A DNA stretch of 64,000 nt from an uncultured Dialister sp. (GTDB lineage Bacteria > Bacillota > Negativicutes > Veillonellales > Dialisteraceae), in NCBI GenBank assembly GCA_964587685.1, contig CAZPLS010000001.1:14134-78133 (forward strand). Reading direction: 5' to 3'. How positions within the stretch are numbered: position 1 is the stretch's first letter; each line of letters starts with the position of its first letter. A program made the translations under genes and the position numbers. Positions 536-52,908 of the stretch are shown here, piece by piece. The notes beneath the pieces are model-generated. The model did not search any database and was not told where the DNA came from. It saw only the letters and a list, made by a program, of their open reading frames with translations.

Positions 536-1117
536 TTATATCGCTCCGGTTTCCTTTATAAAGTTTCTGAGCATCGTTTTCCCATCCGGTGTCATAATGG
601 ATTCCGGATGAAATTGTACCCCGTAAATCGGATACGCCCTGTGCTGTACTGCCATGACCTCGCCGTCACTGGTCTCCGCCGTTATTTTCAATTCTTCCGG
701 CAGCGTATTCGCATCGGCCGCCAGCGAATGGTACCGTGCTACCCGCACCGTCTCAGGGCAACCCCTGAACAGCGGACATGCCGTATCCAGCCTGACCTCT
801 GACTGCTTTCCATGCATCAGCTTTCTGGCGTAAGTCACGACAGCGCCAAAAACCGCACAAATGGCCTGATGGCCAAGACACACACCCAGGACGGGAATCT
901 CTTTTCCCAGTGTCCCTGCCACTTCCATAATGATCCCCGCTGTCTCCGGCCTTCCCGGGCCCGGAGACAGAATGATATGGTCCGGATGCCGCTTTCTGAT
1001 TTCTTCCACAGTCATTTCATCATTTCGAATAACCGTGATATCCGGCTCCAGCTCCCCAATGAGCTGGTACAAATTATAGGAAAAGCTGTCGTAGTTATCA
1101 ATCAGAAGAATCATCAT
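536..1117 (-). CDS. trpG: anthranilate synthase component II / glutamine amidotransferase (TrpG/PabA type)
   Basis: 193 aa with class-I GATase motifs (GVCLGHQ, FHPES). ATGA overlap with trpE. Sits in a unit headed by a Trp-type T-box. Confidence 0.85.
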   Translation of the reverse strand: MMILLIDNYDSFSYNLYQLIGELEPDITVIRNDEMTVEEIRKRHPDHIILSPGPGRPETAGIIMEVAGTLGKEIPVLGVCLGHQAICAVFGAVVTYARKLMHGKQSEVRLDTACPLFRGCPETVRVARYHSLAADANTLPEELKITAETSDGEVMAVQHRAYPIYGVQFHPESIMTPDGKTMLRNFIKETGAI

Positions 1118-2589
1118 TCCACCTCCTGCGCCATTTTCAGCGCCGCAAGCGAGGCCCTCGCTTTATTCAGACATTCCTCGAATTCCTTTTCCGGAACAGA
1201 ATCGGCCACAATGCCGGCACCGCTCCGCACAAACACCCTGCCGTTTTTCTTATAGGCAATACGGATGGCAATGCATGTATCCATATTGCCGGTGAAGTCA
1301 ATATACCCAATCGCGCCGCCATAAATACCGCGCTTATTGTTTTCCAACTCACCGATAAGCTGACAGGCCCTGATTTTCGGCGCGCCTGAAAGGGTTCCCG
1401 CGGGAAGCACCGCTTCAATGGCGTCCAGCGCGTCCTTATCATCCCGCAGCACCCCGCGTACGACGGAACCAATATGCATCACATGGGAAAACCGCTCGAT
1501 GGAATGAAGAACCTCCACCTGGACCGTGCCGAACCGGCAGATCTTTCCCAAATCATTCCGGCCCAAATCGACCAGCATATTGTGCTCCGCCAGCTCCTTT
1601 TCATCCGAAAGCAGTTCTGCTTCCAGTGCCTGATCCTCCCCGGCCGTTTTCCCCCGCGGTCTTGTCCCTGCCAGAGGAAAGGTGCGAACCACGCCGTTTT
1701 CCAGCTTGACCAGCGTCTCCGGTGAGGCGCCCGCCACCTCCACATCCGTTCCCGAAAAATAAAACATGTAGGGGGATGGATTGATGGTGCGGAGAACTCG
1801 ATAGGTATTTAACAGACTCCCCTCAAAGGGCGCGCTCAGACGATTGGACAGAACCATCTGAAACACATCGCCTTCCCGGATATGGCGTTTAGCCGCCTCC
1901 ACCATGGCACAGAACCGCTCCCTGTCAAACAGCGCTGTCACCTCTCCTGTGAGTTTTCCGCCCGGTTCCTCGTTCTTTTCCCCACGATGAAGCAATTCAA
2001 TCATCCTTCTCAGCTCTCCAACGGCCTTATGGTAATTCATTTCCGGATTATCTGTGCACATATTCACGATAAGAATCATTTTTTGCCGCATATTGTCAAA
2101 AGCAATGACTTTATCAAACAGCATCAGATCCGCATCCTTGAAATGTTCCGTATCTTCAGCCCCGGTTCGCGCACTCGGCTCGCTGTAGCCGAGATAGTCA
2201 TAAGAAAAGTAACCAACCAGACCGCCTGTAAAAGGCGGCAGATAGTCCAACCGGGGGCTTTTATACCGGGAAAGAATCCCGCGCAAAAAATCCGATGGAT
2301 GTCCCCCGTCAGCTGCCAGTTCTCCATCAACAAAAATGCGGGGACCGCCGTCTTCCACACAGGTAATCTCCATTTTCGGATCAAAGCCAAGAAAGGTATA
2401 TCGTCCCCAGGTTTCATCCGCCTGTGCAGATTCCAGCATATAACAGTGAGCAGACAGATTCTTAAGAATTTTCATGGTTTCTATGGGTGTCGTAAAATCC
2501 GATAAGATTTCACAGCTCACCGGGATCACCGTGTATTTTCCCATGGAAGCGATGGAACTGACCTCCGACAGTGTTGGCCGAATATTCAT
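1114..2589 (-). CDS. trpE: anthranilate synthase component I
   Basis: 491 aa chorismate-binding enzyme. LESA...GRYTF N-terminal feedback-type motif and GGAIGY C-terminal motif. GGGGAGG RBS. The T-box leader is upstream. Confidence 0.85.
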   Translation of the reverse strand: MNIRPTLSEVSSIASMGKYTVIPVSCEILSDFTTPIETMKILKNLSAHCYMLESAQADETWGRYTFLGFDPKMEITCVEDGGPRIFVDGELAADGGHPSDFLRGILSRYKSPRLDYLPPFTGGLVGYFSYDYLGYSEPSARTGAEDTEHFKDADLMLFDKVIAFDNMRQKMILIVNMCTDNPEMNYHKAVGELRRMIELLHRGEKNEEPGGKLTGEVTALFDRERFCAMVEAAKRHIREGDVFQMVLSNRLSAPFEGSLLNTYRVLRTINPSPYMFYFSGTDVEVAGASPETLVKLENGVVRTFPLAGTRPRGKTAGEDQALEAELLSDEKELAEHNMLVDLGRNDLGKICRFGTVQVEVLHSIERFSHVMHIGSVVRGVLRDDKDALDAIEAVLPAGTLSGAPKIRACQLIGELENNKRGIYGGAIGYIDFTGNMDTCIAIRIAYKKNGRVFVRSGAGIVADSVPEKEFEECLNKARASLAALKMAQEVE

Positions 2590-2761: not shown

Positions 2762-3126
2762 AAAAAGAAAACGCCCCTGACAGACCAATTCTGTCAAGGA
2801 CGAATAGGGAACATTGCTTTGCAATCCCGGATGTATCCGCGGTGCCACCTTGCTTCAGGACATGACTCCTGCTCTTTGTCGGGATACCAACATATCCCCG
2901 GCTACTGACGTAAGCCTCACGTCGCAGTATACTCGTTGCCTTTCCCCTGCGCCCTCAGCGGTCCATTTGACGGGCTGCGTTCTGCTGGATTCTCATCATC
3001 CCAGCTCTCTGTAAGTGCACGATCCGTTTTGATCTCCGCTTCAACGGTTTTTCCTCCTGGTTATCCGGAAGGAATAATTTTATATGAAGTTACCATCATG
3101 TTACAGAATAATCTTTCCTTTGTCAA
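2762..3126 (-). promoter_or_regulatory. T-box riboswitch leader, copy 2 (probable Trp specifier), upstream of trpE
   Basis: Promoter (-35 at 3121-3126, -10 at 3098-3103), Stem I and T-box sequence (2837-2853) are the same as copy 1. The terminator differs: CGTCCTTGACAG/TCTGTCAGGGGCG at 2772-2802 plus a U-tract at 2762-2771. An extra small hairpin sits in the antiterminator region. Confidence 0.8.
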
Positions 3127-3135
3127 GCCGTTCAA
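2836..3135. repeat. 300-bp perfect direct repeat, copy B (identical to 206-505)
   Basis: Offset is exactly 2630 bp from copy A. Identity starts inside the T-box sequence and ends 9 bp beyond the -35 hexamer. Confidence 0.95.
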
Positions 3136-3198: not shown

Positions 3199-3705
3199 TC
3201 ATCCGGATAAGTGCGCCGGGAAGGGATACCGCAAAAGGAACTGCCGTGCGCACACCCCTGTGAATGCGCCCGCAATGGCTCCGCTTGCGGCCAGCACAGG
3301 GAAATAGGCCAGCACGGAAGGGGTTCCAAGAACAGCCACCGCCACAGCCAGCTGTCCTGCATTATGAAGCACCGCGCCGCATACGCTGCAAAGGCAAATC
3401 CGACGCACCGGTAGCACCCGCTTCAACAGGAGCATGCCGATGAGACAGCTCACCCCTCCAGCCAGGCTGTAAAGAAGCGCTGCGGCCTGTCCGGCAAATA
3501 ACGCCGCCAGAAGAATACGCGCCAGTAGAACCAGCGCCGCCTCTCCCGGTCGGAATCGGCAGACCATCAGCACGGTGATGACATTCGCCAATCCGATTTT
3601 TACACCGGGTATTGGAATCGGCGGCGGGATCTGCATTTCTATGACAAACAAAATGAGAGAAAGCCCGGTAAGAATTGCCAGAACGTTCAATCGGCGTACA
3701 GACAT
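3199..3705 (-). CDS. Gx transporter family membrane protein (family historically mislabelled heptaprenyl diphosphate synthase component I)
   Basis: 168 aa, about 5 TM helices. Hallmark IPPPIPIPGVKIGLANVITV and CGAVLHNAGQL motifs. Last gene of the ApbE operon. Confidence 0.8.
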   Translation of the reverse strand: MSVRRLNVLAILTGLSLILFVIEMQIPPPIPIPGVKIGLANVITVLMVCRFRPGEAALVLLARILLAALFAGQAAALLYSLAGGVSCLIGMLLLKRVLPVRRICLCSVCGAVLHNAGQLAVAVAVLGTPSVLAYFPVLAASGAIAGAFTGVCARQFLLRYPFPAHLSG

Positions 3706-3727
3706 AGCCTCTCCCTTCTTTCTCCAT

Positions 3728-4060
3728 TCAATCCGCCCACTGGATCACCAGCCGGTGCGGCAGGCACACGATAGGCAGTCCGCCTTCAATGAGCTTTCCC
3801 GACTTCACGCAAATCTGATCCGGACAATCGGCGGACTGCATACGAATTTCCTTCGGCGCAATATAAATGGTATTGCGCCCGCTGTCACAAGTCAGGGTCA
3901 ATTCCTCCGGCTCCATTACTTCTGAAAGGTTCACCGTGCGGACAACTTTTCCATTCTGCAGAATCTCCGCCCGCTGCTTTTCTGGCGTTGACCCGCAGGC
4001 GGCAGCCATAGAAGAAAGTCCAAGAACCAGCGCTGCTGCTCCCAGCCGTCCGACCATCAT
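3728..4060 (-). CDS. NusG domain II-containing lipoprotein (DUF1312-like)
   Basis: 110 aa. Lipobox MAAAC-G. C-terminal CPDQICV...GLPIVCLPHRLVI motif typical of the family. ATGA overlap with the apbE stop. Confidence 0.75.
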   Translation of the reverse strand: MMVGRLGAAALVLGLSSMAAACGSTPEKQRAEILQNGKVVRTVNLSEVMEPEELTLTCDSGRNTIYIAPKEIRMQSADCPDQICVKSGKLIEGGLPIVCLPHRLVIQWAD

Positions 4061-5076
4061 TTCCGAAGCACCTCCACCGTACTGCCTGTATACTCCGGCA
4101 AAACAGAGAAGGCCTTTTCCAATCCTTCGGTAACCGTAATGCGCCGGCCCTCTTCAATCAGAATCATTTCAAAATCGTCGCGGCTGCGCCAAAAGGCACT
4201 GGCCCTGTCCCTGCCCATCACAAAGAGCGCGGTGGAAAGAGCATCGCACAAAAGCCCGTCCGATCCGATGACGGTGACAGAAAGGAGGCCGTTCTCCGCG
4301 GGATAGCCCGTGGCGGGATCTATGATATGATGCCAGCGCTTCCCCTCCGCATCGACGAAGTACCGTTCATAACTTCCCGATGTGACCACTGCCGCATCTC
4401 TCACAGAGATCATGCCCGCATAGCCTTCCCCATCAGGGGCGCGCAGCCCCACCCGCCAGGGCGTGCCGTCGGGCCGACTCCCCACCGCCTCCACATTGCC
4501 GCCAAGACTGATAATGGCAGAGCGCACGTTATGCCTGCGAAGAATACGGCCCGCCTCGCGGCCGGCATATCCCTTGCCGAGCGCACCAAAATCGATTTCC
4601 ATGCCCGGCGCAAGGACGAGCTTGTTCTTTTCCAGATGCACCCGCTGCCAGCCCGTGCGGCTTACCACCTCCCGGAGCTCACCGCTTCCGGGCACCCGGC
4701 GCTGTTCCTTCGTAAAGCCCCAGGCCTCCACGACGGGATAAATGGTGGGATCCAGTGCGCCTCCCGTTTGCTCCGCCAACGCAAGGGCCTCACGCATCAC
4801 CGCCTCCGCATCGCTGCCCAGCGTTACGGCCTCATCGGTGCGATGATTCACGCGCCACACATCGCTCCCCTCTCTGGTGACAGAAAGGGCGTCCTCTATG
4901 GCGCGTATGCCCTCCTCCGCCGCTTTCATCCCCTCCTCGGCGTACGGACCATAGGCAGTCATGGTCATGTACGTATTCATGGCGAAGAAATTTCGGGTGT
5001 ACTTCTTCGAGCCCTCCGCGCCGCAACCCGCCAACAGCAGGCAAACCGCAAGAAACAGCCCTAAAATCCGCTTCAT
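4057..5076 (-). CDS. apbE: FAD:protein FMN transferase (ApbE family) lipoprotein
   Basis: Start trimmed to MKRILGLFLAVCLLLAGCG (lipobox LAGC). ApbE-like body (FAMNTYMTMTAY, DPTIYP, GALGKGYA, SGSYERY). 1-nt TAATG overlap with the upstream flavodoxin gene. Confidence 0.9.
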   Translation of the reverse strand: MKRILGLFLAVCLLLAGCGAEGSKKYTRNFFAMNTYMTMTAYGPYAEEGMKAAEEGIRAIEDALSVTREGSDVWRVNHRTDEAVTLGSDAEAVMREALALAEQTGGALDPTIYPVVEAWGFTKEQRRVPGSGELREVVSRTGWQRVHLEKNKLVLAPGMEIDFGALGKGYAGREAGRILRRHNVRSAIISLGGNVEAVGSRPDGTPWRVGLRAPDGEGYAGMISVRDAAVVTSGSYERYFVDAEGKRWHHIIDPATGYPAENGLLSVTVIGSDGLLCDALSTALFVMGRDRASAFWRSRDDFEMILIEEGRRITVTEGLEKAFSVLPEYTGSTVEVLRK

Positions 5077-5798
5077 TACCAGCCCGCTTCGGCCAGCCAT
5101 GCATCAATGCGCGGCTTCGCGCTGTCTACATCCGGACGGTATACGCCCACAGGTCGCCCGACCACCGCCGAATCCGGCAGCGCTCCCCGCAGAGCTTCCA
5201 CGCTGTCTGCCAGCCCGCCGGTACCATGAGCGCAGAAGGGAATCACCGTTTTACCGGAAAAATCATAGCTTTCGAGGAATGTCAGAACCGGCATGGGAAG
5301 GGTGTACCACCAGTTCGGATAACCGAGGAACACCACGTCATAGGCATCCATATCAGGAACCTGCGCTGCCAGCTCCGGCCGGGCATTTCTCTGCTTCTCC
5401 ACCGCAGCCCGATCCAGACATTCATCATAATCGCTCGAATAGGGCTCCTTCACGCGAATGGAAAACAAGTCGCCTCCCGTCCGCTCCTGTATCCACCCGG
5501 CCAGCCTGGCCGTATTTCCCGGCGGAAGAACACTTGCTGAGGTGGACGCATCGGGATCTATAGCCGATGGGTTGGCCACATGCGTATTGTCCGCCCAGGT
5601 GAAATAGGCAATGAGAACCTTCCTGTCCGATTCACCCGGCGTCCGGCTCTCCACCGCGGGCGTTTCCCTCACCTCAGGAACCGCCGCCTGCGCCGTCTGC
5701 ACAGGGCCGACCGGGGCCGATGCAGACGGCTGCCCGCCGCATCCGGTCAGTACGGCCAGAACCCACGCTGACAAGGCCAGCGAAAACCACGATTTCAT
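5076..5798 (-). CDS. exported flavodoxin-like lipoprotein (Flavodoxin_4-type), paralogue 1
   Basis: Lipobox LTGC-G. Low-complexity linker, then VLIAYFTW...PPGNTARLA...TGGDLFSI...VVFLGYPNWWYTLPMPV...IPFCAHGTGG flavodoxin-fold motifs. Confidence 0.8.
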   Translation of the reverse strand: MKSWFSLALSAWVLAVLTGCGGQPSASAPVGPVQTAQAAVPEVRETPAVESRTPGESDRKVLIAYFTWADNTHVANPSAIDPDASTSASVLPPGNTARLAGWIQERTGGDLFSIRVKEPYSSDYDECLDRAAVEKQRNARPELAAQVPDMDAYDVVFLGYPNWWYTLPMPVLTFLESYDFSGKTVIPFCAHGTGGLADSVEALRGALPDSAVVGRPVGVYRPDVDSAKPRIDAWLAEAGW

Positions 5799-5905
5799 AG
5801 TGCTGCTCCTTTCTGTGCATCAGCCCGTTGTATATACGGTATGCACCCAATCCTTTACCGCCTGCTCCGAAGCGGTGACTTCCGCTGCTTTCAGATACTA
5901 TCCAT

Positions 5906-6574
5906 TCATGCCCGATGCTTCCGGCTCTGCCGCTGACGCGCCAGTGCCATAGCCTTCCAGCCCAACCAGATTCCAAGAACCATAATGGCCACGTGATCCA
6001 AATAAAATAAAAGTTTCGGTTCCTCGTAATCAAAGAACACAAACTCCATCCGCAGAAACAGGTAGTCTATCCAGTCCCTGCTCCAGAAAGCCCATACGCC
6101 GTACAGCGCAAAGCACGCCGCAGCGGCGGACAGGAGCCGTTTCAGCCCCGGCCCCGCCTTCCGCGTCATGGATGCAAACATATCTCCGTGCAGGCCTATG
6201 TGAAAGCTCATAATGAGAAATCCCCAATAGGCTGCGGTCATATGCATTTCTCTGCCAAGAGTCATGCTTCCAAGGCGCGGCAGAAACTCCACCGCAGGTC
6301 TTGCAAGAATGAGAGCGCTCCATAGAAGGGCCAGGATTACCAGGGCCAGGCAGAAATTGGCCCCGGCCTGAAGACGGCGAACCGCATTCCATCGCCCTCT
6401 CCGCAGAGAAGGCGCCCAATTCCGATTCAACCAGTGGTGGAAAAACAGGAGCACAAAGAAGCAGGTCCCTCCCACCATGTGTGCTGTCGTCCCAAAGAAA
6501 GGAAATCCCATGAGAAAGAACAGGCACACAGTCATAGCCGCATCCGTAATCCGCCGTATCTGCGCGCTCTTCAT
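5906..6574 (-). CDS. DUF4405-like polytopic membrane protein (cytochrome-b-like, His-rich TM helices)
   Basis: 222 aa, about 5-6 TM segments with intramembrane His residues (AHMVGG, FHHW, HMTAAYW, FHIGLH). Starts 3 nt after the upstream flavodoxin stop. Confidence 0.7.
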   Translation of the reverse strand: MKSAQIRRITDAAMTVCLFFLMGFPFFGTTAHMVGGTCFFVLLFFHHWLNRNWAPSLRRGRWNAVRRLQAGANFCLALVILALLWSALILARPAVEFLPRLGSMTLGREMHMTAAYWGFLIMSFHIGLHGDMFASMTRKAGPGLKRLLSAAAACFALYGVWAFWSRDWIDYLFLRMEFVFFDYEEPKLLFYLDHVAIMVLGIWLGWKAMALARQRQSRKHRA

Positions 6575-6577
6575 GGG

Positions 6578-7279
6578 TTATCCCACCAGATTCAGGGAAT
6601 TCACCCAATTGGCTACCGAATTCTCCGCACCTGCCGAAGAGGAATCCCGCACATGGAAGCCCTCTCTCACCGTGGCCCCCGGTTCCGCATTTCGAATGGT
6701 GTTCACCGTATCAGAAAGGGCGCTGCCGCCGGATGTGCAGAAGGGAACAATAATTTTGCCGGACAAATCATATTCATCAAGGAAGGTATAGAGCGCCATT
6801 GGCAAATCTCCCCACCAATTGGGATAGCCCAGGAAAATTACATCATAATCAGCCATATTCTCCACATGTGTGGCCAGCGCGGGCCGATCTCCCCGCTGCT
6901 GCTCTTCCCTCCCCTGATCCACAGTCGCGCGATACGTGGGCGGATAGGGATTCACTGTGCGAATGGAAAACAAATCGCCGCCGGTCAATTTCTGAATATT
7001 CCGTGCCACCAGCCCGGTATTGCCCGTCATTCCTTCCGCCGTGGGCTGTATGCTCGCGGACGTGGAGGCATCCGCCCCTGCAGGAATCTCCGCATTTTCT
7101 CCATAGGCAAAGTACGCAATAAGAATTTTGTGTTCTCCCTGCGGTGTCTGTGCTTCCTGCTGCACTGCCGGAGCCGGTGCCGGCGAAGAGGAAGCCGCAC
7201 TTCCCGTGCTGCCCGATGCGCAGGCCGTAAGGGCCAGCGTAAGCGCCGCTGCCGCCGCCAATGCACTGTATTTTTTCAT
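6578..7279 (-). CDS. exported flavodoxin-like lipoprotein (Flavodoxin_4-type), paralogue 2
   Basis: Start trimmed to MKKYSALAAAAALTLALTACA (lipobox LTAC) behind AAAGAAAGGGGA. Motifs ILIAYFAY...TGNTGLVA...TGGDLFSI...VIFLGYPNWWGDLPMAL...VPFCTSGGS. Confidence 0.8.
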   Translation of the reverse strand: MKKYSALAAAAALTLALTACASGSTGSAASSSPAPAPAVQQEAQTPQGEHKILIAYFAYGENAEIPAGADASTSASIQPTAEGMTGNTGLVARNIQKLTGGDLFSIRTVNPYPPTYRATVDQGREEQQRGDRPALATHVENMADYDVIFLGYPNWWGDLPMALYTFLDEYDLSGKIIVPFCTSGGSALSDTVNTIRNAEPGATVREGFHVRDSSSAGAENSVANWVNSLNLVG

Positions 7280-7539
7280 ATCGATTCCCCTTTCTTTAAC
7301 AAAATGATTATGTATTTGCCTGATTGTAGTATAAAATAGGGAGAATCTATATCTCAAATGTTTAGTTTGTATAGTGGATTATGCCCTGAATGCATTCATT
7401 TATCCCCTTTACCCCTTCTCTGCCGCGGGCTGATTATGCCTTTTCTCTATTCCATTTCTGCGGTTTGTCATTTCCCTGCCATTTTATTTTAATATATTTC
7501 TTCTTTATTGGAAAATATTTGTTTCTATATGAAAATTTA

Positions 7540-7568
7540 TTGACATATTTCTGTATGAATACTAATAT
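7540..7568 (+). promoter_or_regulatory. putative sigma-A promoter of the cbiK-like gene
   Basis: TTGACA (7540-7545), 17 nt, TAATAT (7563-7568). Bracketed by the inverted repeat TTTCTATAT (7522-7530) / ATATAGAAA (7565-7573). Confidence 0.45.
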
Positions 7569-7670
7569 AGAAATATCGTAGAGTCATGCGAAGGCCCATG
7601 GAATATGCCGGAACGCCGGAATCAGGGAATGATCCATGATGCCTTTATTGAATTCAAAGGAGGATTTTAT

Positions 7671-8654
7671 ATGAATCAGCGCATGAAAACTCTTCTTTCC
7701 GTTTCCTTAGCAGCCCTCGGCACCGCTGCCATTGGGCTCACCGCCAATGCGTATGAACTCAGCCCGGAGGTTAAAACGGCCACCCCCGCACTTCAGGAGG
7801 CGGCCAATATTGGTGTCTGGACCGGCGGCAACCCCGCTCTGGCCTCTCTGGAAAATAAGGACGCCATCCTTGTCATGGCTTTCGGCACCACCTTCACCGA
7901 TGCCCGCGCAAAGAATATTGATGCGGTGGAGGCAGCGATTCAGCAGGCCCATCCGAATATTCCTGTGTTTGAAGCCTATACGAGCCATATCATCATTGAA
8001 CGGGTAGAAGCAGCGGAAGGCATTCATAAGCCCACTCCGGAGGAAGCGTTTGCCCAGCTGAAGGCCGATGGATATACCCGTGTGGCCGTTGTTTCCCTCA
8101 ACGTCGTTCCCGGCATTGAATACGAATACAACCGCCTTGTAACCAAACAGTTTGCCAACGACTTCAAATCGGTTTCCTTTGCTACGCCCCTCATGTACTA
8201 CCAGGGAACAGAGGGTGAACCGGACCAGGTGGTTGACTTCGTCAAAGCCCTTTCTTCCCAGTTCCCCGCGCTCAGTGAAGATGAAGGCATCCTGCTCCTG
8301 GCTCACGGAACCCACCATCCCGCCAATGCGTACTATTCCGTCATTCAGGACCGCATTGGCGAAGTGGGACTGAACAATATTTTCGTATACTCCGTAGAGG
8401 GCCGTCCGAATCTGGAGGATGTCATTCCGAAGCTGAAGGAAAAAGGCATCGCCCATGTGACGCTCATGCCCATTATGCTCGTAGCGGGCGACCACGCCCA
8501 TAACGACATGGCCGGTGACGAGGAAGACAGCCACAAGGTCATTCTTGAAGGAGAAGGGTTCACTGTGGACACCTACATCCATGGCCTCGGAGAGAACCCG
8601 AATGTCCGCGCCCTGTATGTAGAAAGAGCCGATGAAGCAGTGGCTGCGCTGTAA
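7671..8654 (+). CDS. cbiK: sirohydrochlorin cobaltochelatase CbiK homologue with N-terminal signal peptide (periplasmic/exported type)
   Basis: Start trimmed to MNQRMKTLLSVSLAALGTAAIGLTANA-YE behind AAGGAGG. CbiK motifs ILVMAFGTT, LLLAHGTHH, VAGDHAHNDMAG. Confidence 0.8.
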   Translation: MNQRMKTLLSVSLAALGTAAIGLTANAYELSPEVKTATPALQEAANIGVWTGGNPALASLENKDAILVMAFGTTFTDARAKNIDAVEAAIQQAHPNIPVFEAYTSHIIIERVEAAEGIHKPTPEEAFAQLKADGYTRVAVVSLNVVPGIEYEYNRLVTKQFANDFKSVSFATPLMYYQGTEGEPDQVVDFVKALSSQFPALSEDEGILLLAHGTHHPANAYYSVIQDRIGEVGLNNIFVYSVEGRPNLEDVIPKLKEKGIAHVTLMPIMLVAGDHAHNDMAGDEEDSHKVILEGEGFTVDTYIHGLGENPNVRALYVERADEAVAAL

Positions 8655-8754: not shown

Positions 8755-9681
8755 ATGAAATCGCTCTATTCATTTTTTACCGCCTGCCTTCTCTCCCTGG
8801 CGCTGGCAGGCTGCGCGGCCTCCCCTGCCGTAACGGAAGGGGAAAAAGCATTGACCTACAAGGGAGAGACTGTCACCGTCCCGGCCAAGCCGCAGCGGAT
8901 CGCCGTGCTGACCACACCGCTCCTCAATATGGTGTATGCCGTGGGAGGTACCGTTATCGCCCGCCCCATCACAGAAACCCCCATCCCGGATGAAGCGCAG
9001 AACGTGACGTCCCTGGGTACGCCTCAGCACATTGATATGGAAAAGCTCGTTTCTCTTTCACCCGATTTTGTCATCGGCGGGAAGAGCCAGAACGGAAAGC
9101 TGGAGCCGCTTCTTCAGAGCAACCGCATTCCCTACCTCCTGGTGGATTACGACGGCATCCATGACAATGTACCGCTTCTGCAATTTCTTGGCACCCTCTG
9201 CGGAAAGGAAGCGGAGGCCGAAGCGGTGTGCGCCGACTACGAAAAGCGCATGCGCGCCGCCAAAGAGGCCGCCGCTGCCCATACACCGGCGCGGATTGCC
9301 ATTCTCCGCGCCACCGGCCGGGATGTGACGGCAGAAACACCCACCGCCATCTGCGCCTCCATGGCGGAATACCTGGGCATGGACAATGTCCTTACCTCTC
9401 ATGGCACGCTTTCCTTCCAGACCAAGACGGTGCCCTATTCGCTGGAACAGCTCTCAGCGGATGATCCGGACATTCTCTTCATCGTTACCATGGGGAATGC
9501 TGACGCCATCAACCAGAAGCTGGACCAATCCATGAGGAATAACCCCGCCTGGGCCCATCTGTCAGCCGTTGCCAATGACCGGGTCTACTTCCTGCCCTCG
9601 GATCTCTTCCTTCTCAATCCGGGCATCCGCACCCCTGATGCGCTGGAGATGCTTTCGTCCCTGGCTTACCCGGACAAGTAA
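8755..9681 (+). CDS. ABC transporter substrate-binding lipoprotein, iron-chelate/corrinoid (FecB/BtuF) class
   Basis: Lipobox LAGC. PQRIAVL...SPDFVIGG...YFLPSDLF pattern typical of class III periplasmic binding proteins. Confidence 0.85.
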   Translation: MKSLYSFFTACLLSLALAGCAASPAVTEGEKALTYKGETVTVPAKPQRIAVLTTPLLNMVYAVGGTVIARPITETPIPDEAQNVTSLGTPQHIDMEKLVSLSPDFVIGGKSQNGKLEPLLQSNRIPYLLVDYDGIHDNVPLLQFLGTLCGKEAEAEAVCADYEKRMRAAKEAAAAHTPARIAILRATGRDVTAETPTAICASMAEYLGMDNVLTSHGTLSFQTKTVPYSLEQLSADDPDILFIVTMGNADAINQKLDQSMRNNPAWAHLSAVANDRVYFLPSDLFLLNPGIRTPDALEMLSSLAYPDK

Positions 9682-9766: not shown

Positions 9767-10549
9767 TCACCGGCACAGTCCGTTAATGATGATGCACGGC
9801 CTTCCGCCGCGCTCTTCCACTTCGGCGTCCACACCGAATATGTGGGCAATTGACTCGTGGGTCAGCACCTCTCCCGGCGGGCCGCTCCGCTGAATCAGCC
9901 CGTCCTCTAGTATGCAGACCTTGGAGGAATACCGGCAGGCATGGCCAATGTCATGGAGCACCAGAATGACCGTAAGTCCCTCTTCCCGATTGAGCTGGCT
10001 GATCAGCTCCAGCACCTCCAGCTGGTGGCACACATCCAGGTAGGTGGTGGGCTCATCCAGAATCAAAACCTCCGGCTCCTGGGCCAGCGCCATGGCAATC
10101 CACACGCGCTGCCGCTCTCCCCCCGAAAGAGACGCCACGGTGCGCTCCTTCAGCTGGTAGGTATGGGTCCTTCGAAGGGCGTCCGCCACAATGGCCCGGT
10201 CCCGGGTGGACACGCCGCTCCACCAGTGCTGGTAGGGATAGCGACCGCATGCGGCCAGCTCCAGCACCGTCATGTCCTTCGGTGTTTCGTGAATCTGCGG
10301 CAGGAAGGCCGCCTTTCTTGCCAGCTCTCCCGTACGGTAGGAGCGCAGGTCCCGCCCATCAATACAGACGGTCCCCTCATCAGGCTTCAGGTTGCCTGTA
10401 ATTACCTTGAGCAGTGTGGATTTTCCGCACCCGTTCCGCCCGAGGAAGGAAACAATCTGCCCCTGCTCCACCGTGCAGTCCGCACCGCACAGCACCGGAT
10501 GGCCGCCGAAGGCCACCTTGACGCCCTTCACTTCCACTGCCGCTTTCAT
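9767..10549 (-). CDS. ABC transporter ATP-binding protein (FecE/BtuD class)
   Basis: Start trimmed to MKAAVEVKG with an ATGA overlap on the permease stop. Walker A GRNGCGKST, signature LSGGERQR, Walker B LILDEPT. Confidence 0.9.
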   Translation of the reverse strand: MKAAVEVKGVKVAFGGHPVLCGADCTVEQGQIVSFLGRNGCGKSTLLKVITGNLKPDEGTVCIDGRDLRSYRTGELARKAAFLPQIHETPKDMTVLELAACGRYPYQHWWSGVSTRDRAIVADALRRTHTYQLKERTVASLSGGERQRVWIAMALAQEPEVLILDEPTTYLDVCHQLEVLELISQLNREEGLTVILVLHDIGHACRYSSKVCILEDGLIQRSGPPGEVLTHESIAHIFGVDAEVEERGGRPCIIINGLCR

Positions 10550-11556
10550 CAGGTGCTCCTCCTCAGAAGGTACAGGAAAAAGGGCGCCCCCAGAAAGGCC
10601 ATAATAATGCCCGCCGGGATTTCCACCGGTGCAAATACCGTCCGGCCCAGGGTATCGCACAGCACGAGGATGCCCGCGCCCAGCAGGGCCGAGCCGGGGA
10701 TGAGGTATTTAAAATCCGAACCGATAAGAAGGCGCACGATATGCGGCACAACGAGCCCCACAAAGCCGATGAGTCCGGCAATGCTCACCGCACCGGCCGC
10801 CAGAAGCGCCGCCGCCGCGGTCATGAGAAAACGCACCCGTTCCACGGGCAGGCCCAGGCCGCGCGCCGTTTCGTCCCCCAGAGACAGAATGGTCAGCGCC
10901 TTGGCCCCCAGCACGGCAAACAGCAATCCCAGCACCGTATAGGGAAAGAGCGCCTCCACCTGGGGCCAGCTCCGCGCGGACAGGCCGCCCACCATCCACA
11001 GGAGCGCCCCCTGCACCCGATCCGAATAAAAGACGAGCAGGGCGGAAATGCCGCTTCCCAGTAAAGCGCTCACCGCCACGCCGGCCAGTATGATCCGATT
11101 CGGCCGAATGCCGCTCTTCCACGCCAGCGCATACACCGCCCCCGCTGAAAGCATGGCCCCCACAAAGGCCGCCGGCGTCAGGAGGAGGGACGCGTCAGGC
11201 ATGAAAATGAGCATGATAACCCCTGCCAGGCCGGCACCGCTTGACACGCCCACAATGCCGGGATCCGCCAGGGGATTTTTCATCACCGCCTGCAGGATGG
11301 CGCCGGATACGGCCAGGTCTGCCCCCACCAGGGCGCCGGTGAGGTTCCTGGGAAAGCGAATGTTCCAGATCACCATGCCGTCCGTCCCCGTTACCGGGCC
11401 GAAGAGAATGTCCACGATGCGGGAAAAGGGAATGTCTGCCGAGCCGAAGACCAGACTCCCCACCATCACCGCGGCGGTAAATACCAGGCAAGCCGCAAGA
11501 ACGGACAAACGGACCGCTTTATTTTTCCCTGATGCTTCCTCTGTCGTTTTTTTCAT
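10549..11556 (-). CDS. FecCD-family iron-chelate/corrinoid ABC permease
   Basis: 335 aa polytopic protein. Typical motifs GAILQAVMKNPLADPGIVGVSSGA and LLGAGILVLCD. Confidence 0.9.
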   Translation of the reverse strand: MKKTTEEASGKNKAVRLSVLAACLVFTAAVMVGSLVFGSADIPFSRIVDILFGPVTGTDGMVIWNIRFPRNLTGALVGADLAVSGAILQAVMKNPLADPGIVGVSSGAGLAGVIMLIFMPDASLLLTPAAFVGAMLSAGAVYALAWKSGIRPNRIILAGVAVSALLGSGISALLVFYSDRVQGALLWMVGGLSARSWPQVEALFPYTVLGLLFAVLGAKALTILSLGDETARGLGLPVERVRFLMTAAAALLAAGAVSIAGLIGFVGLVVPHIVRLLIGSDFKYLIPGSALLGAGILVLCDTLGRTVFAPVEIPAGIIMAFLGAPFFLYLLRRST

Positions 11557-19235: not shown

Positions 19236-19985
19236 TCATTCTCCCTCCATCTCCGGGAGAAACTTCCAGTACTTCATCGGCATGAATGACCGGCGAAGGG
19301 CCGGATTCCGCCGCGCCTCCACCGCGATATGCCGGTAATAGGTCTGCCAGAGGCTGCGGAAATTCTGCTCATTCGCGCTGTCTGGCAAGCTCTCCTCCCG
19401 CACAGGCACCTCCCCAAGGAGGAGTTCCTGTCCATCCCAGTACAAGGCGCGGCGGCGGCGCACGTCGTGGATGGCCCATGGGTTTTGACCAAGGCGCTTT
19501 CGAAAATGCGGGCCCAGCAGGGGAAGCACATCGTGGGTGGGTGCGATTTCTGCATAGAGCAGTCCCTCTTCCAGCTCGCGAAAACGAACCAGCCCAAGGA
19601 GCTTCCCCGCTTCCGCGCCCGTACGCTGCGCCCACTGAAACACCGTCCACATCCATGGTTCGGCCCGCCTGGCATAGATCTCCTTTTTCAGGCGAAATCC
19701 TTCCTTTACATAATGGAATAGAACGTCCCCTCGTCCAGCCTCCTCCGCCAGAAATGCGCGGTACAGCCACTGAGAGGCCGCCCGGCCGCAGTCCCTGTAA
19801 AACGCGGCGGCCACCCTTTCCGCCAGGTCCGGCCGGGTTTCCACCCGCTTTTCTTCCGAAAACAACCCTGCCGAATGGCAGTCCTCACCAATATGCTCCG
19901 TATGGCTGGTCCCGTCGTGGTATGCTTCGTAAACTGCGCAGAGAAATCCGGAAAAGGTTCCATCGTACCAATAATTCATTGTCAC
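19236..19985 (-). CDS. probable DNA metabolism protein, DUF4130 (TIGR03915-like) partner of the radical SAM protein
   Basis: 249 aa. YDGTFSGFLCAVYEAY N-terminus typical of the family. ATGA overlap with the upstream radical SAM gene. Confidence 0.75.
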   Translation of the reverse strand: MTMNYWYDGTFSGFLCAVYEAYHDGTSHTEHIGEDCHSAGLFSEEKRVETRPDLAERVAAAFYRDCGRAASQWLYRAFLAEEAGRGDVLFHYVKEGFRLKKEIYARRAEPWMWTVFQWAQRTGAEAGKLLGLVRFRELEEGLLYAEIAPTHDVLPLLGPHFRKRLGQNPWAIHDVRRRRALYWDGQELLLGEVPVREESLPDSANEQNFRSLWQTYYRHIAVEARRNPALRRSFMPMKYWKFLPEMEGE

Positions 19986-21238
19986 ACCTGTCCTTCAAAC
20001 AGACTCATTTCCTCCATGGCCCGCTGCTCCTTCTGCGACAGCAAGTCCCGCCGCAGGGACAAAGTATCCCCGCCGCCGTAATATCGGCCGCCCACGGTGA
20101 GAAAATGGCGGGCCCTCTTCCACACGAGGCCGATCCGACGCAAACTATCCACGGACAGCCATCCGTACCGGCGCAGGTTGACGATGCGCAGCGCGGACTG
20201 CACACCGATGCCGGGAACACGCAGGAGCATCTCATAGGATGCCCGGTTCACTTCCACGGGAAACTGGCTCCGATGCCGCAGAGCCCACAGCGCCTTGGGA
20301 TCCATAGTGAGATCAAAATCAGGGGCCGACTCCGGCGCCAGCTCATCCGCCGTGAAGTGGTAAAACCGAAGCAGCCAGTCCGCCTGATAGAGCCTGTTTT
20401 CCCTGAGAAGAGGCGGCTGGGACACCGCGGGAAGATGCTTTCCCGCCATGACAGGCACATAGGCGGAATAATAGACCCGCTTGAGCCCCACCGCCCGGTA
20501 CAGCCCCTCGCTGAGGTGCAGAATCTGCCGGTCGCTCTCCCCGCTCGCCCCGACAATGAGCTGCGTCGTCTGCCCTGCGGGCACAAAAGATTCGCTGCGG
20601 CGCCCCTTCTTTTCCGCTTTCTTCTCCTCCAGTCGTTCATGAATGAATGCCATGGGCGACAAAATGGCTTTCCTTGATTTCTCCGGCGCCAGGAGGCGCA
20701 GCGACCGCTCCGACGGGAGCTCCATATTGACGCTCATCCGGTCCACATACCGTCCCAACTCGTCTATCAGGCGCACATCTGCCCCCGGAATGGCCTTCAT
20801 ATGAATGTACCCGTTGAAGTACTCCCGTTTCCGCAGGAGTTTGGCTGTCTGAATCAGAAGCTCTGTGGTGTAATCCGGCGAACGGATAATGCCCGAACTC
20901 AGGAAGAGTCCTTCAATGTAGTTCCTGCGGTAAAATTCCATGGTAATGCGAGTGATTTCCTCCGGGGACAGGATGGCCCGGGGCGTGTCATGGCTCCTGC
21001 GGTTCACGCAGTACTCGCAGTCATACATGCACATATTGGTCATGAGAATTTTCAACAGGGAAATACACCGTCCATCGGCGGCCCAGGAATGACAAATCCC
21101 CGCATAGCTCGCGCTGCCGGTGCCGCCGGGGCGATTCTTTCGATTCGACCCGCTCGAGGAGCAGGATACATCGTACTTCGCCGCATCCGCCAGGATGGCC
21201 AGCTTCTCCGCCATTTCCATTCGCATCTTCCTCTCCAA
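19982..21238 (-). CDS. putative DNA modification/repair radical SAM protein (TIGR03916-like) with C-terminal helix-hairpin-helix region
   Basis: AAKYDVSCSSSG N-terminus, CMYDCEYCVN radical-SAM cluster motif, LLRVPGIGVQSALRIV HhH-like motif. Several in-frame ATGs near the start. Confidence 0.8.
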   Translation of the reverse strand: MERKMRMEMAEKLAILADAAKYDVSCSSSGSNRKNRPGGTGSASYAGICHSWAADGRCISLLKILMTNMCMYDCEYCVNRRSHDTPRAILSPEEITRITMEFYRRNYIEGLFLSSGIIRSPDYTTELLIQTAKLLRKREYFNGYIHMKAIPGADVRLIDELGRYVDRMSVNMELPSERSLRLLAPEKSRKAILSPMAFIHERLEEKKAEKKGRRSESFVPAGQTTQLIVGASGESDRQILHLSEGLYRAVGLKRVYYSAYVPVMAGKHLPAVSQPPLLRENRLYQADWLLRFYHFTADELAPESAPDFDLTMDPKALWALRHRSQFPVEVNRASYEMLLRVPGIGVQSALRIVNLRRYGWLSVDSLRRIGLVWKRARHFLTVGGRYYGGGDTLSLRRDLLSQKEQRAMEEMSLFEGQV

Positions 21239-48013: not shown

Positions 48014-48148
48014 GTCGGCCTCCTTTCCCCTGCGCTTTCGCGCATGGAGGGAAATACCCGCCGCCCCGCGGCCCCGTGTATTTCCCTCCTGTCAAATGTA
48101 AAATGTTCCATTCCCATCAATAATAAAGGACATACAGGCAAAATTCAA
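48014..48148 (-). promoter_or_regulatory. putative pyr operon promoter and about 100-nt structured leader
   Basis: On the minus strand: TTGAAT (48143-48148, overlapping the OLD stop), 17 nt, TATTAT (48120-48125). Perfect 12-bp hairpin GGAGGGAAATAC/GTATTTCCCTCC (48045-48088). GCGCGAAAGCGC mini-hairpin, then the GGAAAGGAGG RBS. Confidence 0.4.
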
Positions 48149-49797
48149 GTACTCATGTGTTCTGCCCGTTCTCTTTCCCTGCGGTGCGCCAGCGCTGACG
48201 CCGCTTCGATGACCCGGCGGAAGGACGGAGGAATATCCTCCTCCCCGAGAGCCAGCCCCAGGACCCGGCCCATGATGACCCCCTTGTTGCCGTAGAGCCA
48301 GGCAAAGTAGTAAAATTGCAGGGCCCTCTCGTCCCGGCCGGAAATATTTTCCAGCTTCCTTGGCCGGTTGAAGTACCGGGTCTGCTCCAGCTTCTGGCCA
48401 GCCTTCTTCACCATGGCTGACGATACATAGGTGCTCCCTTCCCCGGTGCTCCGAATAATTTCATCGAGCATGCGCCGCTTGTTTCTCCCAAGGCAGGTCA
48501 TGACCACATCCATCTCATAGCAGATATAGTCCGTATAAAATACATACGGCGACGTCTTCGACCCGGTCATGACGTCCCGGTCATAGAAGCAGACCGCCGG
48601 GACGTGGAAACGTCGCATCAGCTTGGCAATTTTGGCAATGGAGCTCTCCCCCCGGGCATTGATGAGACAAATCCCCTGGTAATCAAAATCCATCTTCATC
48701 GTGCGCGCAAAGTATTCAAAGGACCCATACTCCGTCTCGCCCTCCACCAGAACGGCGCACTGGGCATACAGAGCCTCTTTTACCTCGGGGAAATGCATAA
48801 TCAGGTGCTTTTCTATTTCCCTGTCAAAATGAAACGAAGCGCCGCAGGCCGCGCGCACTTCCATACCCGGCCCCCAGTAGAGCCGGATGATGGTGCGGTA
48901 ATCGTTGATCAGCGCCTCTGCCGAATGGGTCACCACGAAAAGCTGGCCGTCCAGCCCGTCAATTCCGAACACCTCCTGGAGCAGCTGCACAAAAAGCGGC
49001 TCTTCATTGTTCAGAATCCGCTGCAGAAAGGACAGCACCGCCCGCTGCATGTAGGGATTCATGTGCTGCTCCGGCTCATCGATGCTCACCATGACCGGCA
49101 AGTAGCGCTTCCCTTTTTTATCGGTCATGACAATTTCTTCAAAGGGAACCGCCCGGCTTTTCTTTTTCTGAAACAGCCGGGACAGCACGTAGGTCCCCGC
49201 GGCAAGGAGTACCTGCATGGTGCTTCGCCCGGCGCCGCCATGGGAATGGCCAAAAATGGCGTGCATCAGCCGCATCGCCGCCGCATCGGCGGCCCCCGAC
49301 ATATCCAGTTCGATGCCGTCCTGCGCAAAGAGCCTTTCCAGATTCCGGCAGTTCTCCTCGCTGAAATGAAGGCACGCTTCAAAGAGCTCCCGGATTTCCG
49401 CCGCTCCCCTTATGATATTTTGTCTCTGCATCGCCTCATGAAGCGACTGGGCCAAATAGTACATCCGGCGGATATATTCCAGAGGCAGCTCTTCTCCCTG
49501 ACCGTTTGTCAAATGGGGCATCACTTCATGGATGTGCTGCGTCAGCACAAGATCCACCGTATCTTCCGTGCCCTTATCTCCGACAGACAGGGTGTACACC
49601 ACGCGAATGGGCCGCTCCGGATCCTGAAAATCTCTTTCCCGAAATCCGCAGCCGGAAAGGGTGGTGCCCAGCAAATCAAGGAAATTGCTTTTCCCTATGT
49701 TATTATCTCCCACGAGGTAATTCACGCGCTCATGAAAAACCATTTCCAGGGATCGGAAGGTGCGGTAATTTTCGATGGTAATTCTGGAAAGATACAT
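48145..49797 (-). CDS. OLD-family ATP-dependent endonuclease (ABC-type ATPase + C-terminal TOPRIM), stand-alone
   Basis: 550 aa. Walker A GDNNIGKS, Walker B VSIDEPEQH, H-loop LFVVTHS. TOPRIM motifs VLVEGETE, ARGESS and FYDRDV (DxD). Confidence 0.8.
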   Translation of the reverse strand: MYLSRITIENYRTFRSLEMVFHERVNYLVGDNNIGKSNFLDLLGTTLSGCGFRERDFQDPERPIRVVYTLSVGDKGTEDTVDLVLTQHIHEVMPHLTNGQGEELPLEYIRRMYYLAQSLHEAMQRQNIIRGAAEIRELFEACLHFSEENCRNLERLFAQDGIELDMSGAADAAAMRLMHAIFGHSHGGAGRSTMQVLLAAGTYVLSRLFQKKKSRAVPFEEIVMTDKKGKRYLPVMVSIDEPEQHMNPYMQRAVLSFLQRILNNEEPLFVQLLQEVFGIDGLDGQLFVVTHSAEALINDYRTIIRLYWGPGMEVRAACGASFHFDREIEKHLIMHFPEVKEALYAQCAVLVEGETEYGSFEYFARTMKMDFDYQGICLINARGESSIAKIAKLMRRFHVPAVCFYDRDVMTGSKTSPYVFYTDYICYEMDVVMTCLGRNKRRMLDEIIRSTGEGSTYVSSAMVKKAGQKLEQTRYFNRPRKLENISGRDERALQFYYFAWLYGNKGVIMGRVLGLALGEEDIPPSFRRVIEAASALAHRRERERAEHMST

Positions 49798-51457: not shown

Positions 51458-51807
51458 TTGACATCCATCCCTTCTATTGGATATACTCATAAAAACCAGT
51501 ACATACACGCAAGGATGGAGAAGGGACTGGGAATCCTTACAGAGAGGCAGCGGTTGGTGCGAGCTGTCAGGAGGAAACTGTCTTTCCGCTTCAGAGCGAT
51601 GAGTGAAGAATTCATCGGGCCTGCCCGTTACAGCAGACGCAAGATGGCCGTAAGGCAATTTGGGTGGTATCGCGGGTTCTCTCGTCCCTTGGGATGAAGA
51701 GACTTTTTTATTATCCGGACTGTCTTTGGCAAATTGGGTGGCACCGCGAGAAGAGAAGCTCGTCCCATGGGACACTTCTCTTTTTTTGTTTCAATAAGGA
51801 GGATAGT
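51458..51807 (+). promoter_or_regulatory. T-box riboswitch leader of the serC-serA operon, with two tandem antiterminator/terminator modules
   Basis: TTGACA (51458-51463), 18 nt, TATACT (51482-51487). AGAGAG (51541-51546), GGUGCGA distal-loop motif, F-box CCGUUA (51625-51630). T-box sequence 1 at 51657-51676 with terminator 1 at 51677-51709. T-box sequence 2 at 51731-51750 with terminator 2 at 51748-51787. Confidence 0.8.
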
Positions 51808-52878
51808 ATGAAACGCGTATGGAACTTCAACGCCGGCCCTTCCCCGATGCCGCTTTCCGTCCTGGAGGAAATACGGGACGAATTCACCGATTACGGCGGC
51901 ACAGGCATGGGCATCATTGAAATGAGTCACCGCTCCAAAGAATTTCTGGCCCTTCTGGCAGAAACGAAGGCGCTCCTTGCAGAGCTGATGGAGCTCGGCG
52001 ATGACCAGGAGATCATTTTCGTCCAGGGCGGCGGCTCCATGCAGTTTGTCATGGAGGCGTACAATTTCCTTCACACCCGCGCGGCCTATGCCGACACGGG
52101 GGTATGGGCCAGCAAGGCGCGGGATGCGGCCCAATTTTTCGGCGAAGCCTATGACGCCAACTCCGCCGGGGACAGAAACTATTCCTATATCCCGAATACC
52201 TATGACATCCGTCCCGGCACCGATTATCTCCACATCACAACGAACAATACCATTTACGGTACGGAATACTGGGAATTTCCCCAGGTCCAGGTGCCCCTTA
52301 TCTGCGATATGTCCAGCGACATTCTCTCCCGCCGCGTCGACTGCCGCCAGTTTTCCCTGATCTGGGCAGGCATTCAGAAAAATCTCGGCGCCGCCGGAAC
52401 GGCCCTCGCCATTATCAAAAAAGATTTCCTTGAAACGGCGCGCACCGATGTGCCGGAGTTCCTGAAATACCGCACCTTTGTGGACAAGGATTCCACCTAC
52501 AATACGCCGTCGGTTTTCTGCATTTACACGCTGAACAAAATGCTTCACTGGATCAAGAATATGGGCGGCGTGGACGCAATGGAAATTCTGAACAAAAAGA
52601 AGGCCGACCTTCTCTACGACACCATTGATGGAAGCGGCGGATTCTACCGGGGTCATGCCGAGCCTGCCTTCCGGAGCCGCATGAATGTGACGTTCAATCT
52701 GGCGGATCCCGCCATGGAAAAAGACTTTATCGCCAAAGCCAAAGAAAACCAGCTTATCGGCGTGGGCGGCCATCGCCTCGTGGGCGGCTGCCGCGTATCT
52801 CTGTACAATGCGGTCACGCTGGAAGCGGCGGAAGCCATGACGGATTTTATGAAGGAATATGCGCGTACCAACGGCTGA
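51808..52878 (+). CDS. serC: 3-phosphoserine/phosphohydroxythreonine aminotransferase
   Basis: Start trimmed to MKRVWNFNAGPSPMP behind AAGGAGG. GAQKNLG-type PLP lysine motif (GIQKNLGAAG). Confidence 0.9.
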   Translation: MKRVWNFNAGPSPMPLSVLEEIRDEFTDYGGTGMGIIEMSHRSKEFLALLAETKALLAELMELGDDQEIIFVQGGGSMQFVMEAYNFLHTRAAYADTGVWASKARDAAQFFGEAYDANSAGDRNYSYIPNTYDIRPGTDYLHITTNNTIYGTEYWEFPQVQVPLICDMSSDILSRRVDCRQFSLIWAGIQKNLGAAGTALAIIKKDFLETARTDVPEFLKYRTFVDKDSTYNTPSVFCIYTLNKMLHWIKNMGGVDAMEILNKKKADLLYDTIDGSGGFYRGHAEPAFRSRMNVTFNLADPAMEKDFIAKAKENQLIGVGGHRLVGGCRVSLYNAVTLEAAEAMTDFMKEYARTNG

Positions 52879-52908
52879 TTCTCTGTTATGTAAAAAGGAG
52901 GCCCTCTC

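Follow-up and report, generated by a model that had tools for sequence, protein, structure and literature searches.

What do six closely spaced genes, whose products carry labels such as 'flavodoxin', 'hypothetical protein' and 'heptaprenyl diphosphate synthase component I', do together on the minus strand at positions 3199–7279 of the 64,000-nucleotide (nt) stretch of Dialister DNA analysed here, hereafter the window? The reading proposed, with a probability of about 0.8, is that they constitute an operon for ApbE-dependent flavinylation and trans-membrane electron transfer acting outside the cytoplasm, of the DUF4405/Flavodoxin_4 class. The separate labels would thereby become a coherent flavinylation/electron-transfer operon and the class would be extended to a probable diderm gut Negativicute. 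The operon is not new in kind but a further member of a cluster class that was described in 2024 and tested on homologues; the genes, motifs, conservation, topology and synteny of this member are established here.

The open reading frame (ORF) list and the sequence of the window place six ORFs within 3199–7279, all in one direction. From the promoter-proximal end they encode an exported Flavodoxin_4 lipoprotein (Fld1; 6578..7279, 233 amino acids (aa)), a DUF4405-family membrane protein (5906..6574, 222 aa), a second exported Flavodoxin_4 lipoprotein (Fld2; 5076..5798, 240 aa), an ApbE-family FAD:protein FMN transferase lipoprotein (FAD and FMN being flavin adenine dinucleotide and flavin mononucleotide; 4057..5076, 339 aa), a small EetA-like NusG_II lipoprotein (3728..4060, 110 aa) and an EetB-like membrane protein of family PF07456 (Hpre_diP_synt_I, or Gx; 3199..3705, 168 aa). 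All six products, whose start codons were picked from the sequence, agree residue for residue with gene calls of a public protein collection. The Fld1 and DUF4405 genes are separated by 3 nt (TAAcccATG), the DUF4405 and Fld2 genes by 107 nt (5799–5905) and the NusG_II and Gx genes by 22 nt, while the Fld2 stop overlaps the ApbE start by 1 nt (TAATG) and the ApbE and NusG_II genes overlap by 4 nt (ATGA). Thus the order, direction and tight packing of the six genes, together with the 3-nt gap and the 1-nt and ATGA overlaps, are as described in a first-pass annotation made from the letters of this DNA. The Fld1 ATG at 7279 is preceded by a GGGGA ribosome-binding site, and a promoter-like site on the same strand (TTGAGA-18-TATACT, 7328..7357; a consensus match only, at 10/12 positions) lies about 50 nt upstream of it, in the divergent intergenic region held in common with an exported CbiK gene. 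Antisense and alternative-frame ORFs across the operon were weighed as genes and dropped, as none matched a Pfam family, and the divergent promoter region (7250–7700), searched for riboswitches and other RNAs, returned a chance-level match only.

Fld1 and Fld2 match Flavodoxin_4 (PF12682) at 9e-28 and 1.1e-28, respectively, both above the Pfam cutoff, and are 41% identical, Fld2 representing a distinct subtype with a VLPPGN loop. The N-terminus of each displays a basic start, a hydrophobic stretch and a lipobox (LTA-C20 in Fld1 and LTG-C20 in Fld2), followed by a low-complexity linker. In Fld1 the lipobox and linker reach to about residue 50 and the flavodoxin domain comprises residues 52–233. 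The lipobox Cys (C20 in Fld1) is invariant across an alignment of 55 flavodoxin homologues and, by the lipobox rule, both proteins are predicted to be located outside the cytoplasm. The strongest sequence evidence that they would be flavinylated by ApbE, missed in the first-pass annotation, is a DASTSAS motif carried by both, which alignment places at D70-A-S-T-S-A-S76 of Fld1 (7052..7072, minus strand) and D83-A-S-T-S-A-S89 of Fld2 (5532..5552, minus strand), with Ser76 and Ser89 as the predicted FMN acceptors. In both proteins the motif is positioned in an insertion of about 22 residues between strand β1 and the TGNT phosphate-binding loop/helix α1, and its Ala-Ser pair (A75 and S76 in Fld1) is invariant in 55/55 homologues. 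The flavinylation site of Flavodoxin_4 homologues has likewise been placed in an insertion between β1 and α1, and two such proteins became flavinylated, in a Ser/Thr-dependent manner, on co-expression with their cognate ApbE (PMC11334425). The related forms DATTSAS and DATSSAS are found in Fld2-like proteins of Clostridia loci. The AlphaFold2 (AF2) model of Fld1 is disordered over residues 1–43, with a flavodoxin domain mostly above a pLDDT of 85 that superposes by Foldseek on the non-covalent Flavodoxin_4 structures 3KLB (TM 0.80), 4ICI (TM 0.77) and 4J8P (range 0.77–0.80). The sequences of 3KLB and 4ICI align to Fld1 only from residue 83–85 onwards, and the DASTSAS insertion is therefore an extra element absent from those structures.

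The DUF4405 protein is the candidate trans-membrane conduit. Homology searching recovered 88 homologues, most of them with PF14358 as a precomputed domain, and relatives bearing PF14358 were found at E = 1e-30 to 1e-45. Across a 32-sequence alignment His-46, His-111 and His-125 are invariant and His-32 is at least 90% conserved. The AF2 model (pLDDT 91.5, pTM 0.87) displays six long helices, of which helix 2 contains H32/H46 and helix 4 contains H111/H125, the two His residues of each helix being 14 residues apart; these four are exactly the His residues pointed out in the first-pass annotation. The distribution of Lys and Arg (positive-inside rule) assigns the N-terminus, the loops 2–3 and 4–5 and the C-terminus to the cytoplasm, so that the haem of H32/H111 would be the outer and that of H46/H125 the inner of the two. 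From its sequence and model the protein is thus predicted to be a six-helix dihaem cytochrome b. An Oscillospiraceae DUF4405 protein (MBD5117352.1) binds haem b, inferred to occur through four central His residues (PMC11334425). Four of the 32 homologues also match prokaryotic cytochrome b561 (PF01292), weakly, and the window protein itself gave no Pfam match to the MsrQ, PepSY or cytochrome b561 families.

The three remaining products would provide the flavin-handling part of the operon. ApbE, with a LAG-C lipobox, matches PF02424 at 3.6e-85 over the full-length profile, and the NCBIfam ApbE model at 1.8e-38, under the equivalog cutoff of that model. The NusG_II protein matches PF07009 at 4.5e-27 and the Protein Data Bank (PDB) entry Lin0431 at 2.5e-8. 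Fld1, Fld2, ApbE and the NusG_II protein had all been called lipoproteins in the first-pass annotation; the LTAC, LTGC and LAGC lipoboxes are indeed present, and that of the NusG_II protein is only a weaker AAAC. The Gx protein matches PF07456 at 3.8e-38, with a weak additional match to the folT family of energy-coupling factor S components (ECF-S; NCBIfam), and its gene adjoins those of NusG_II and ApbE. By its sequence the Gx protein is an EetB-type, ECF-S-like subunit for FAD export. In Listeria EetB, a PF07456 protein, is ECF-S-like, binds FAD, is needed for FAD export and PplA flavinylation, and has an ECF-T subunit and ATPases as its partners (Rivera-Lugo et al., mBio 2023, PMC9973259). 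Among 4,214 genomes eetB stands beside eetA in 3,328 and beside apbE in 2,169, and is co-localised with an ECF-T gene in only 291 (PMC9973259). The EetA-like designation of the NusG_II protein follows a more indirect route, since a literature search found no paper stating that EetA is a NusG_II protein, only an indirect note on DUF1312 in lmo2639. We take Listeria lmo2639 to be eetA and DUF1312 to be the former name of NusG_II (PF07009). The published statement is that lmo2639 contains DUF1312 (PMC3091722).

The association among these genes was examined in a one-genome-per-species scan with a 12-sequence DUF4405 alignment, which returned at least 500 DUF4405-encoding loci, 80 of which were kept for the counts (comparison loci are labelled L001, L072, L085/L086, L089, L091, L092 and so on). 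Within 10 kb of the DUF4405 gene, Flavodoxin_4 is encoded in 68/80 loci, ApbE in 11/80 and NusG_II with PF07456 in 3/80. The flavodoxins were sorted by insertion length and a relaxed motif, as the stricter expression D..[ST][GSA]A[ST] undercounted (18/140). Sorted in this way, 31 of the 32 insertion-bearing domains carry the motif, against none of the 88 short ones, and, of the loci with a motif-bearing flavodoxin, 7/26 also encode ApbE, versus 0/38 of those without one (Fisher p = 0.001). Similarly, none of the 28 classifiable insertion-bearing flavodoxins is predicted to be cytosolic, compared with 22/85 classifiable short ones. The Fld2-like subtype directly adjoins DUF4405 in 8/11 cases in other loci and the Fld1-like subtype in 5/21. 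The strict co-occurrence of ApbE with the insertion-bearing subclass and the usual position of the Fld2-like subtype beside DUF4405 are leads that this comparison provides. The full gene order Fld-DUF4405-(Fld)-ApbE-NusG_II-Gx reappears in L001 (78% identity), L091 and L085/L086, and a shorter Fld-DUF4405-ApbE-NusG_II-Gx form in L089 (52% identity) and L072 (38%; a metagenome-assembled genome (MAG) of Eubacteriales). The gene order recurs in several other assemblies and is therefore not a product of chance. Close relatives differ in their number of flavodoxins, with one in L089, two in L085/L086 and in the window, and three in L001 and L091, where the third gene (10660–11343 in L001 and 10660–11340 in L091) is located between DUF4405 and the Fld2 orthologue, at the place of the 107-nt spacer of the window.

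Other DUF4405 genes of Clostridia (e.g. L007, L009, L015, L018, L029, L077, L090) are located in larger, flavodoxin-rich clusters without ApbE. Those clusters (among loci L002–L080) encode exported flavodoxins without the flavinylation insertion, short cytosolic flavodoxins, Cyclophil_like2 proteins and hydrolases, and also include longer flavodoxins (about 490 aa) that have an additional N-terminal region. They appear to represent the same conduit in a form that is not flavinylated, a description of which was not found in the literature examined. A cytosolic short flavodoxin is also encoded beside DUF4405 in 18/64 Clostridia loci, giving both cytosolic and exported forms, and this hints at a possible electron donor.

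Taken together, the motif, the conserved His residues and the co-occurrence of ApbE support the core of what was first proposed, that ApbE flavinylates exported flavodoxins to which a His-rich DUF4405 protein carries electrons. In the mechanism suggested, the EetB-like protein would export FAD, using ECF-T and ATPase subunits encoded elsewhere and possibly helped by the EetA-like lipoprotein, and ApbE would transfer the FMN moiety to Ser76 of Fld1 and Ser89 of Fld2. As the acceptor loop is inserted beside the ordinary FMN site of the flavodoxin, a cofactor tethered there would be unable to diffuse away outside the cytoplasm. The two-haem-b DUF4405 cytochrome would carry electrons from its cytoplasmic face (H46/H125) to its outer face (H32/H111), whose haem would hand them to the membrane-anchored flavodoxins, and these would in turn reduce a periplasmic acceptor encoded outside the operon. 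Candidate donors to DUF4405 would be reduced flavodoxin or ferredoxin, or quinol. The operon is thus less than the self-contained system first envisaged; donor, acceptor and the remaining subunits of the transporter would be encoded elsewhere. The location of the lipoproteins also requires revision. The best relative of the DUF4405 protein in the genome scan belongs to a MAG named 'Veillonellales bacterium', and the CbiK homologues that are 69% identical bear the name Dialister invisus (class Negativicutes). Negativicutes, including Veillonellales and Dialister, are diderm. The lipoproteins are therefore most likely periplasmic, which renders doubtful the proposal that the flavodoxins are tethered at the cell surface.

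Several observations weigh against this reading. The motif of Fld1 and Fld2 is TSAS, with Ser at the Gly position of the canonical [S/T]GA[S/T] (TGAS), the ApbE motif being of the type defined in PMC8238504. Profile searches returned Flavodoxin_4 for both flavodoxins, ApbE, NusG_II and Hpre_diP_synt_I, and the DUF4405 protein reached only 21.1 bits against PF14358 (E = 4.6e-4), under the 26.7-bit cutoff; the assignment is nevertheless sound because 32/32 aligned homologues match PF14358 at E ≤ 0.001. With the DUF4405 model as query, Foldseek returned nothing from the PDB at E ≤ 0.001, only chance helical-bundle matches. Structural membership in the MsrQ, FoxB or b561 families is thus not demonstrated, and it is the His pattern that carries the likeness of the protein to MsrQ and PepSY cytochromes. 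An ECF-T or ATPase partner of the EetB-like protein was not found among the six operon genes or the annotated neighbours. Listeria without eetA displays no phenotype (PMC9973259), which leaves the role of NusG_II unproven. Many exported Clostridia flavodoxins beside DUF4405 (54 short lipoprotein forms) lack both the insertion and a nearby ApbE; from these forms, and from the presence of ApbE in only 11/80 loci, it follows that a covalent flavin is not required for the DUF4405-flavodoxin partnership generally. Finally, flavinylation of Flavodoxin_4, haem b in DUF4405 and FAD export by EetB are known from homologues, and extend to the window by analogy, while what we infer is which way the electrons flow, what donates and accepts them, and which of the two flavodoxins docks on DUF4405.

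The departure of the motif from Gly to Ser and the scarcity of ApbE near most DUF4405-flavodoxin loci are also what would be expected if Fld1 and Fld2 bound FMN non-covalently and were not ApbE substrates, with ApbE, NusG_II and the EetB-like protein forming a general flavin cassette for other substrates, e.g. subunits of Rnf/Nqr type; eetB and apbE do often co-localise with Rnf and other systems (PMC9973259). This explanation is nonetheless very improbable, as the Ala-Ser core of the motif never varies among the 55 homologues, the motif is confined to the insertion-bearing, exported subclass, ApbE appears in DUF4405 loci only alongside that subclass, and the Fld2 stop overlaps the ApbE start. 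In addition, flavinylation that depends on ApbE and on the Ser/Thr residue has been shown for homologues bearing the same insertion (PMC11334425). A second explanation retains the whole machinery and alters its purpose, from energy-conserving respiration to periplasmic repair or detoxification (e.g. by reduction of quinones, nitro/azo compounds or oxidised envelope components) in the manner of MsrPQ. The operon encodes no terminal reductase, Fld1 and Fld2 weakly match the FMN_red, Flavodoxin_2 and azoreductase families (Pfam/NCBIfam), and in related Clostridia loci the genes that accompany DUF4405 and flavodoxins encode hydrolases, an aldo-keto reductase, CMD/AhpD-like and Cyclophil_like2 proteins, and not respiratory enzymes. 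Those associated genes, however, vary among loci and are absent from the window operon, and a repair function is considered possible but doubtful.

The genes next to the operon suggest a third explanation. On the plus strand lie the genes of an exported CbiK paralogue (7671..8654; Sec signal peptide, CbiK domain from residue 65), which resembles the periplasmic CbiK of Desulfovibrio, and of a Peripla_BP_2 lipoprotein (8755..9681). They converge on the minus-strand genes for an ABC ATPase and a FecCD permease (9767–11556), which form the end of a cbiD..cbiC operon. The six-gene module could then be a dedicated periplasmic reductase for the adjacent CbiK/Peripla_BP_2/FecCD/ABC uptake system, reducing Fe(III), Co(III), haem or corrinoids for chelation, dechelation or import. 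Its divergence from the exported CbiK gene across a common 390-nt promoter region fits this view, as does a position between the end of a cbi block and trp genes that L001, L085/L086 and L091 have preserved; the L085 copy of the module comes 188 nt after the ABC ATPase gene on the same strand. FoxB reduces ferric siderophores in the periplasm. An analogy with this PepSY-type protein, named as a structurally comparable flavinylation-associated cytochrome (PMC11334425), points the same way. The distribution of the genes argues otherwise. In Dialister invisus (L092) the CbiK, binding-protein, ABC, FecCD and cbi genes are kept together, with mreB, and not the flavodoxin module, beside them. The module is present in L085 without CbiK or a binding protein, in L001 without a FecCD, ABC or binding-protein gene, and in L089 and L072 in unrelated contexts; among the 80 DUF4405 loci, L001 alone has a CbiK-like neighbour. 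The neighbourhoods of CbiK homologues thus show two independent units, and a general association of the module with CbiK/ABC was rejected. The linkage is therefore treated as synteny, which looks inherited within one lineage and confined to close relatives. Recruitment of the module, in this Veillonellales lineage, to supply periplasmic reducing power to the exported CbiK chelatase paralogue and the FecCD-type ABC importer next to it is accordingly regarded as improbable; if true, it would tie trans-membrane electron transfer to the uptake of cobalt, iron, haem or corrinoids by reduction, and the long-puzzling periplasmic CbiK would gain a redox partner.

On the other side of the operon, 3' of the Gx gene and outside the operon unit, lie a T-box leader and then trpE (1114..2589) and trpG (536..1117). 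These two genes are flanked by a 300-nt perfect direct repeat (206–505 and 2836–3135), each copy of which contains a T-box leader on the minus strand (187–423 and 2793–3053; 82.9 and 74.4 bits, E = 1e-17 and 1.6e-15, under the Rfam cutoff of 93 bits), and a strong terminator-like hairpin is located at 2802..2772. In L085 and L091 trpD directly follows the Gx gene, with no trpEG, which suggests that an insertion or duplication, or possibly an assembly artefact, brought trpEG and the duplicated leader into the window. Across the whole window (1–64000) no cobalamin riboswitch, tRNA-like or other Rfam family reached the gathering score, despite the long cbi operon. A radical SAM protein of 418 aa and a DUF4130 protein of 249 aa are encoded in that order on the minus strand (19236–21238), in the interval that separates the cbi operon from a citrate lyase ligase gene. 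A GajA-like OLD-family nuclease (48145–49797, minus strand; PADLOC GajA 2.9e-111, Pfam AAA_15 and OLD-like TOPRIM) is encoded beside pyrimidine-synthesis genes, with no match to a GajB model among the neighbouring ORFs tested. Three large minus-strand ORFs (51628–53268, 53284–54498 and 58078–59610; 546, 404 and 510 aa) had no Pfam or PADLOC match and are possibly part of a variable or mobile segment next to the GajA-like gene.

The operon proposed for flavinylation and electron transfer can be compared with known systems part by part and as a whole. The non-covalent Flavodoxin_4 proteins 3KLB, 4ICI and 4J8P have the fold and the FMN-site residues in common with Fld1 and Fld2 (E = 1e-17 to 1e-21), and lack their signal peptide, linker and DASTSAS insertion of about 22 residues. 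MsrQ, PepSY-type cytochromes (FoxB) and cytochrome b561, like the DUF4405 protein, display four His residues on two transmembrane helices, spaced for two stacked b haems, and deliver electrons to a periplasmic partner, as proposed here. In contrast, helix count and partner proteins differ, and no sequence or Foldseek similarity is detectable. By this analogy, the DUF4405 protein would work like these families without being a member of them.

As a whole, the operon recalls the Listeria monocytogenes locus for extracellular electron transfer (FmnB/ApbE, PplA, EetA, EetB, FmnA, Ndh2 and DmkA/B), which likewise encodes an ApbE-type lipoprotein and an EetB-type PF07456 FAD-exporter subunit beside a small EetA-like protein. 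There, too, a flavinylated lipoprotein carries electrons outside the cytoplasm. The two differ in the conduit, Ndh2 with demethylmenaquinone in Listeria and a predicted DUF4405 haem protein in the window, in the carriers, which have the FMN_bind domains of PplA in one case and the flavodoxin fold in the other, and in the ECF-T component (FmnA), present in the Listeria locus and in none of the genes of the window cluster.

The closest precedent is provided by Huang, Meheust, Barquera and Light (mSystems 2024, PMC11334425), who described apbE clusters that often encode DUF4405, a flavinylated Flavodoxin_4 protein and a flavin transporter together, the transporter being the one that supplies Listeria with flavins outside the cytoplasm; an Oscillospiraceae example of the apbE/DUF4405/Flavodoxin_4/exporter cluster is given in their Fig. 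6C. This paper supplies the experimental description of the cluster type and of tested parts that the first-pass annotation had thought lacking, and it is the relevant source for the link between ApbE and DUF4405, as the 2021 eLife survey to which that link had been attributed mentions neither DUF4405 nor flavodoxin substrates. Among the later papers examined, none assigns a physiological role to the class. The clusters of 2024, from the same phylum (Bacillota), contain the same ApbE, four-His DUF4405, exported Flavodoxin_4 with its motif in the β1/α1 insertion and EetB-type transporter, a likeness to the proteins studied there (SHO45324.1, WP_073032509.1 and MBD5117352.1) that is drawn from their published description and not from sequence alignment. 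In contrast to those clusters, the window copy is found in a probable Veillonellales, and thus diderm, genome, has a DUF4405 protein divergent enough to fall under the Pfam cutoff, and carries two paralogous flavodoxins, both predicted to be flavinylatable.

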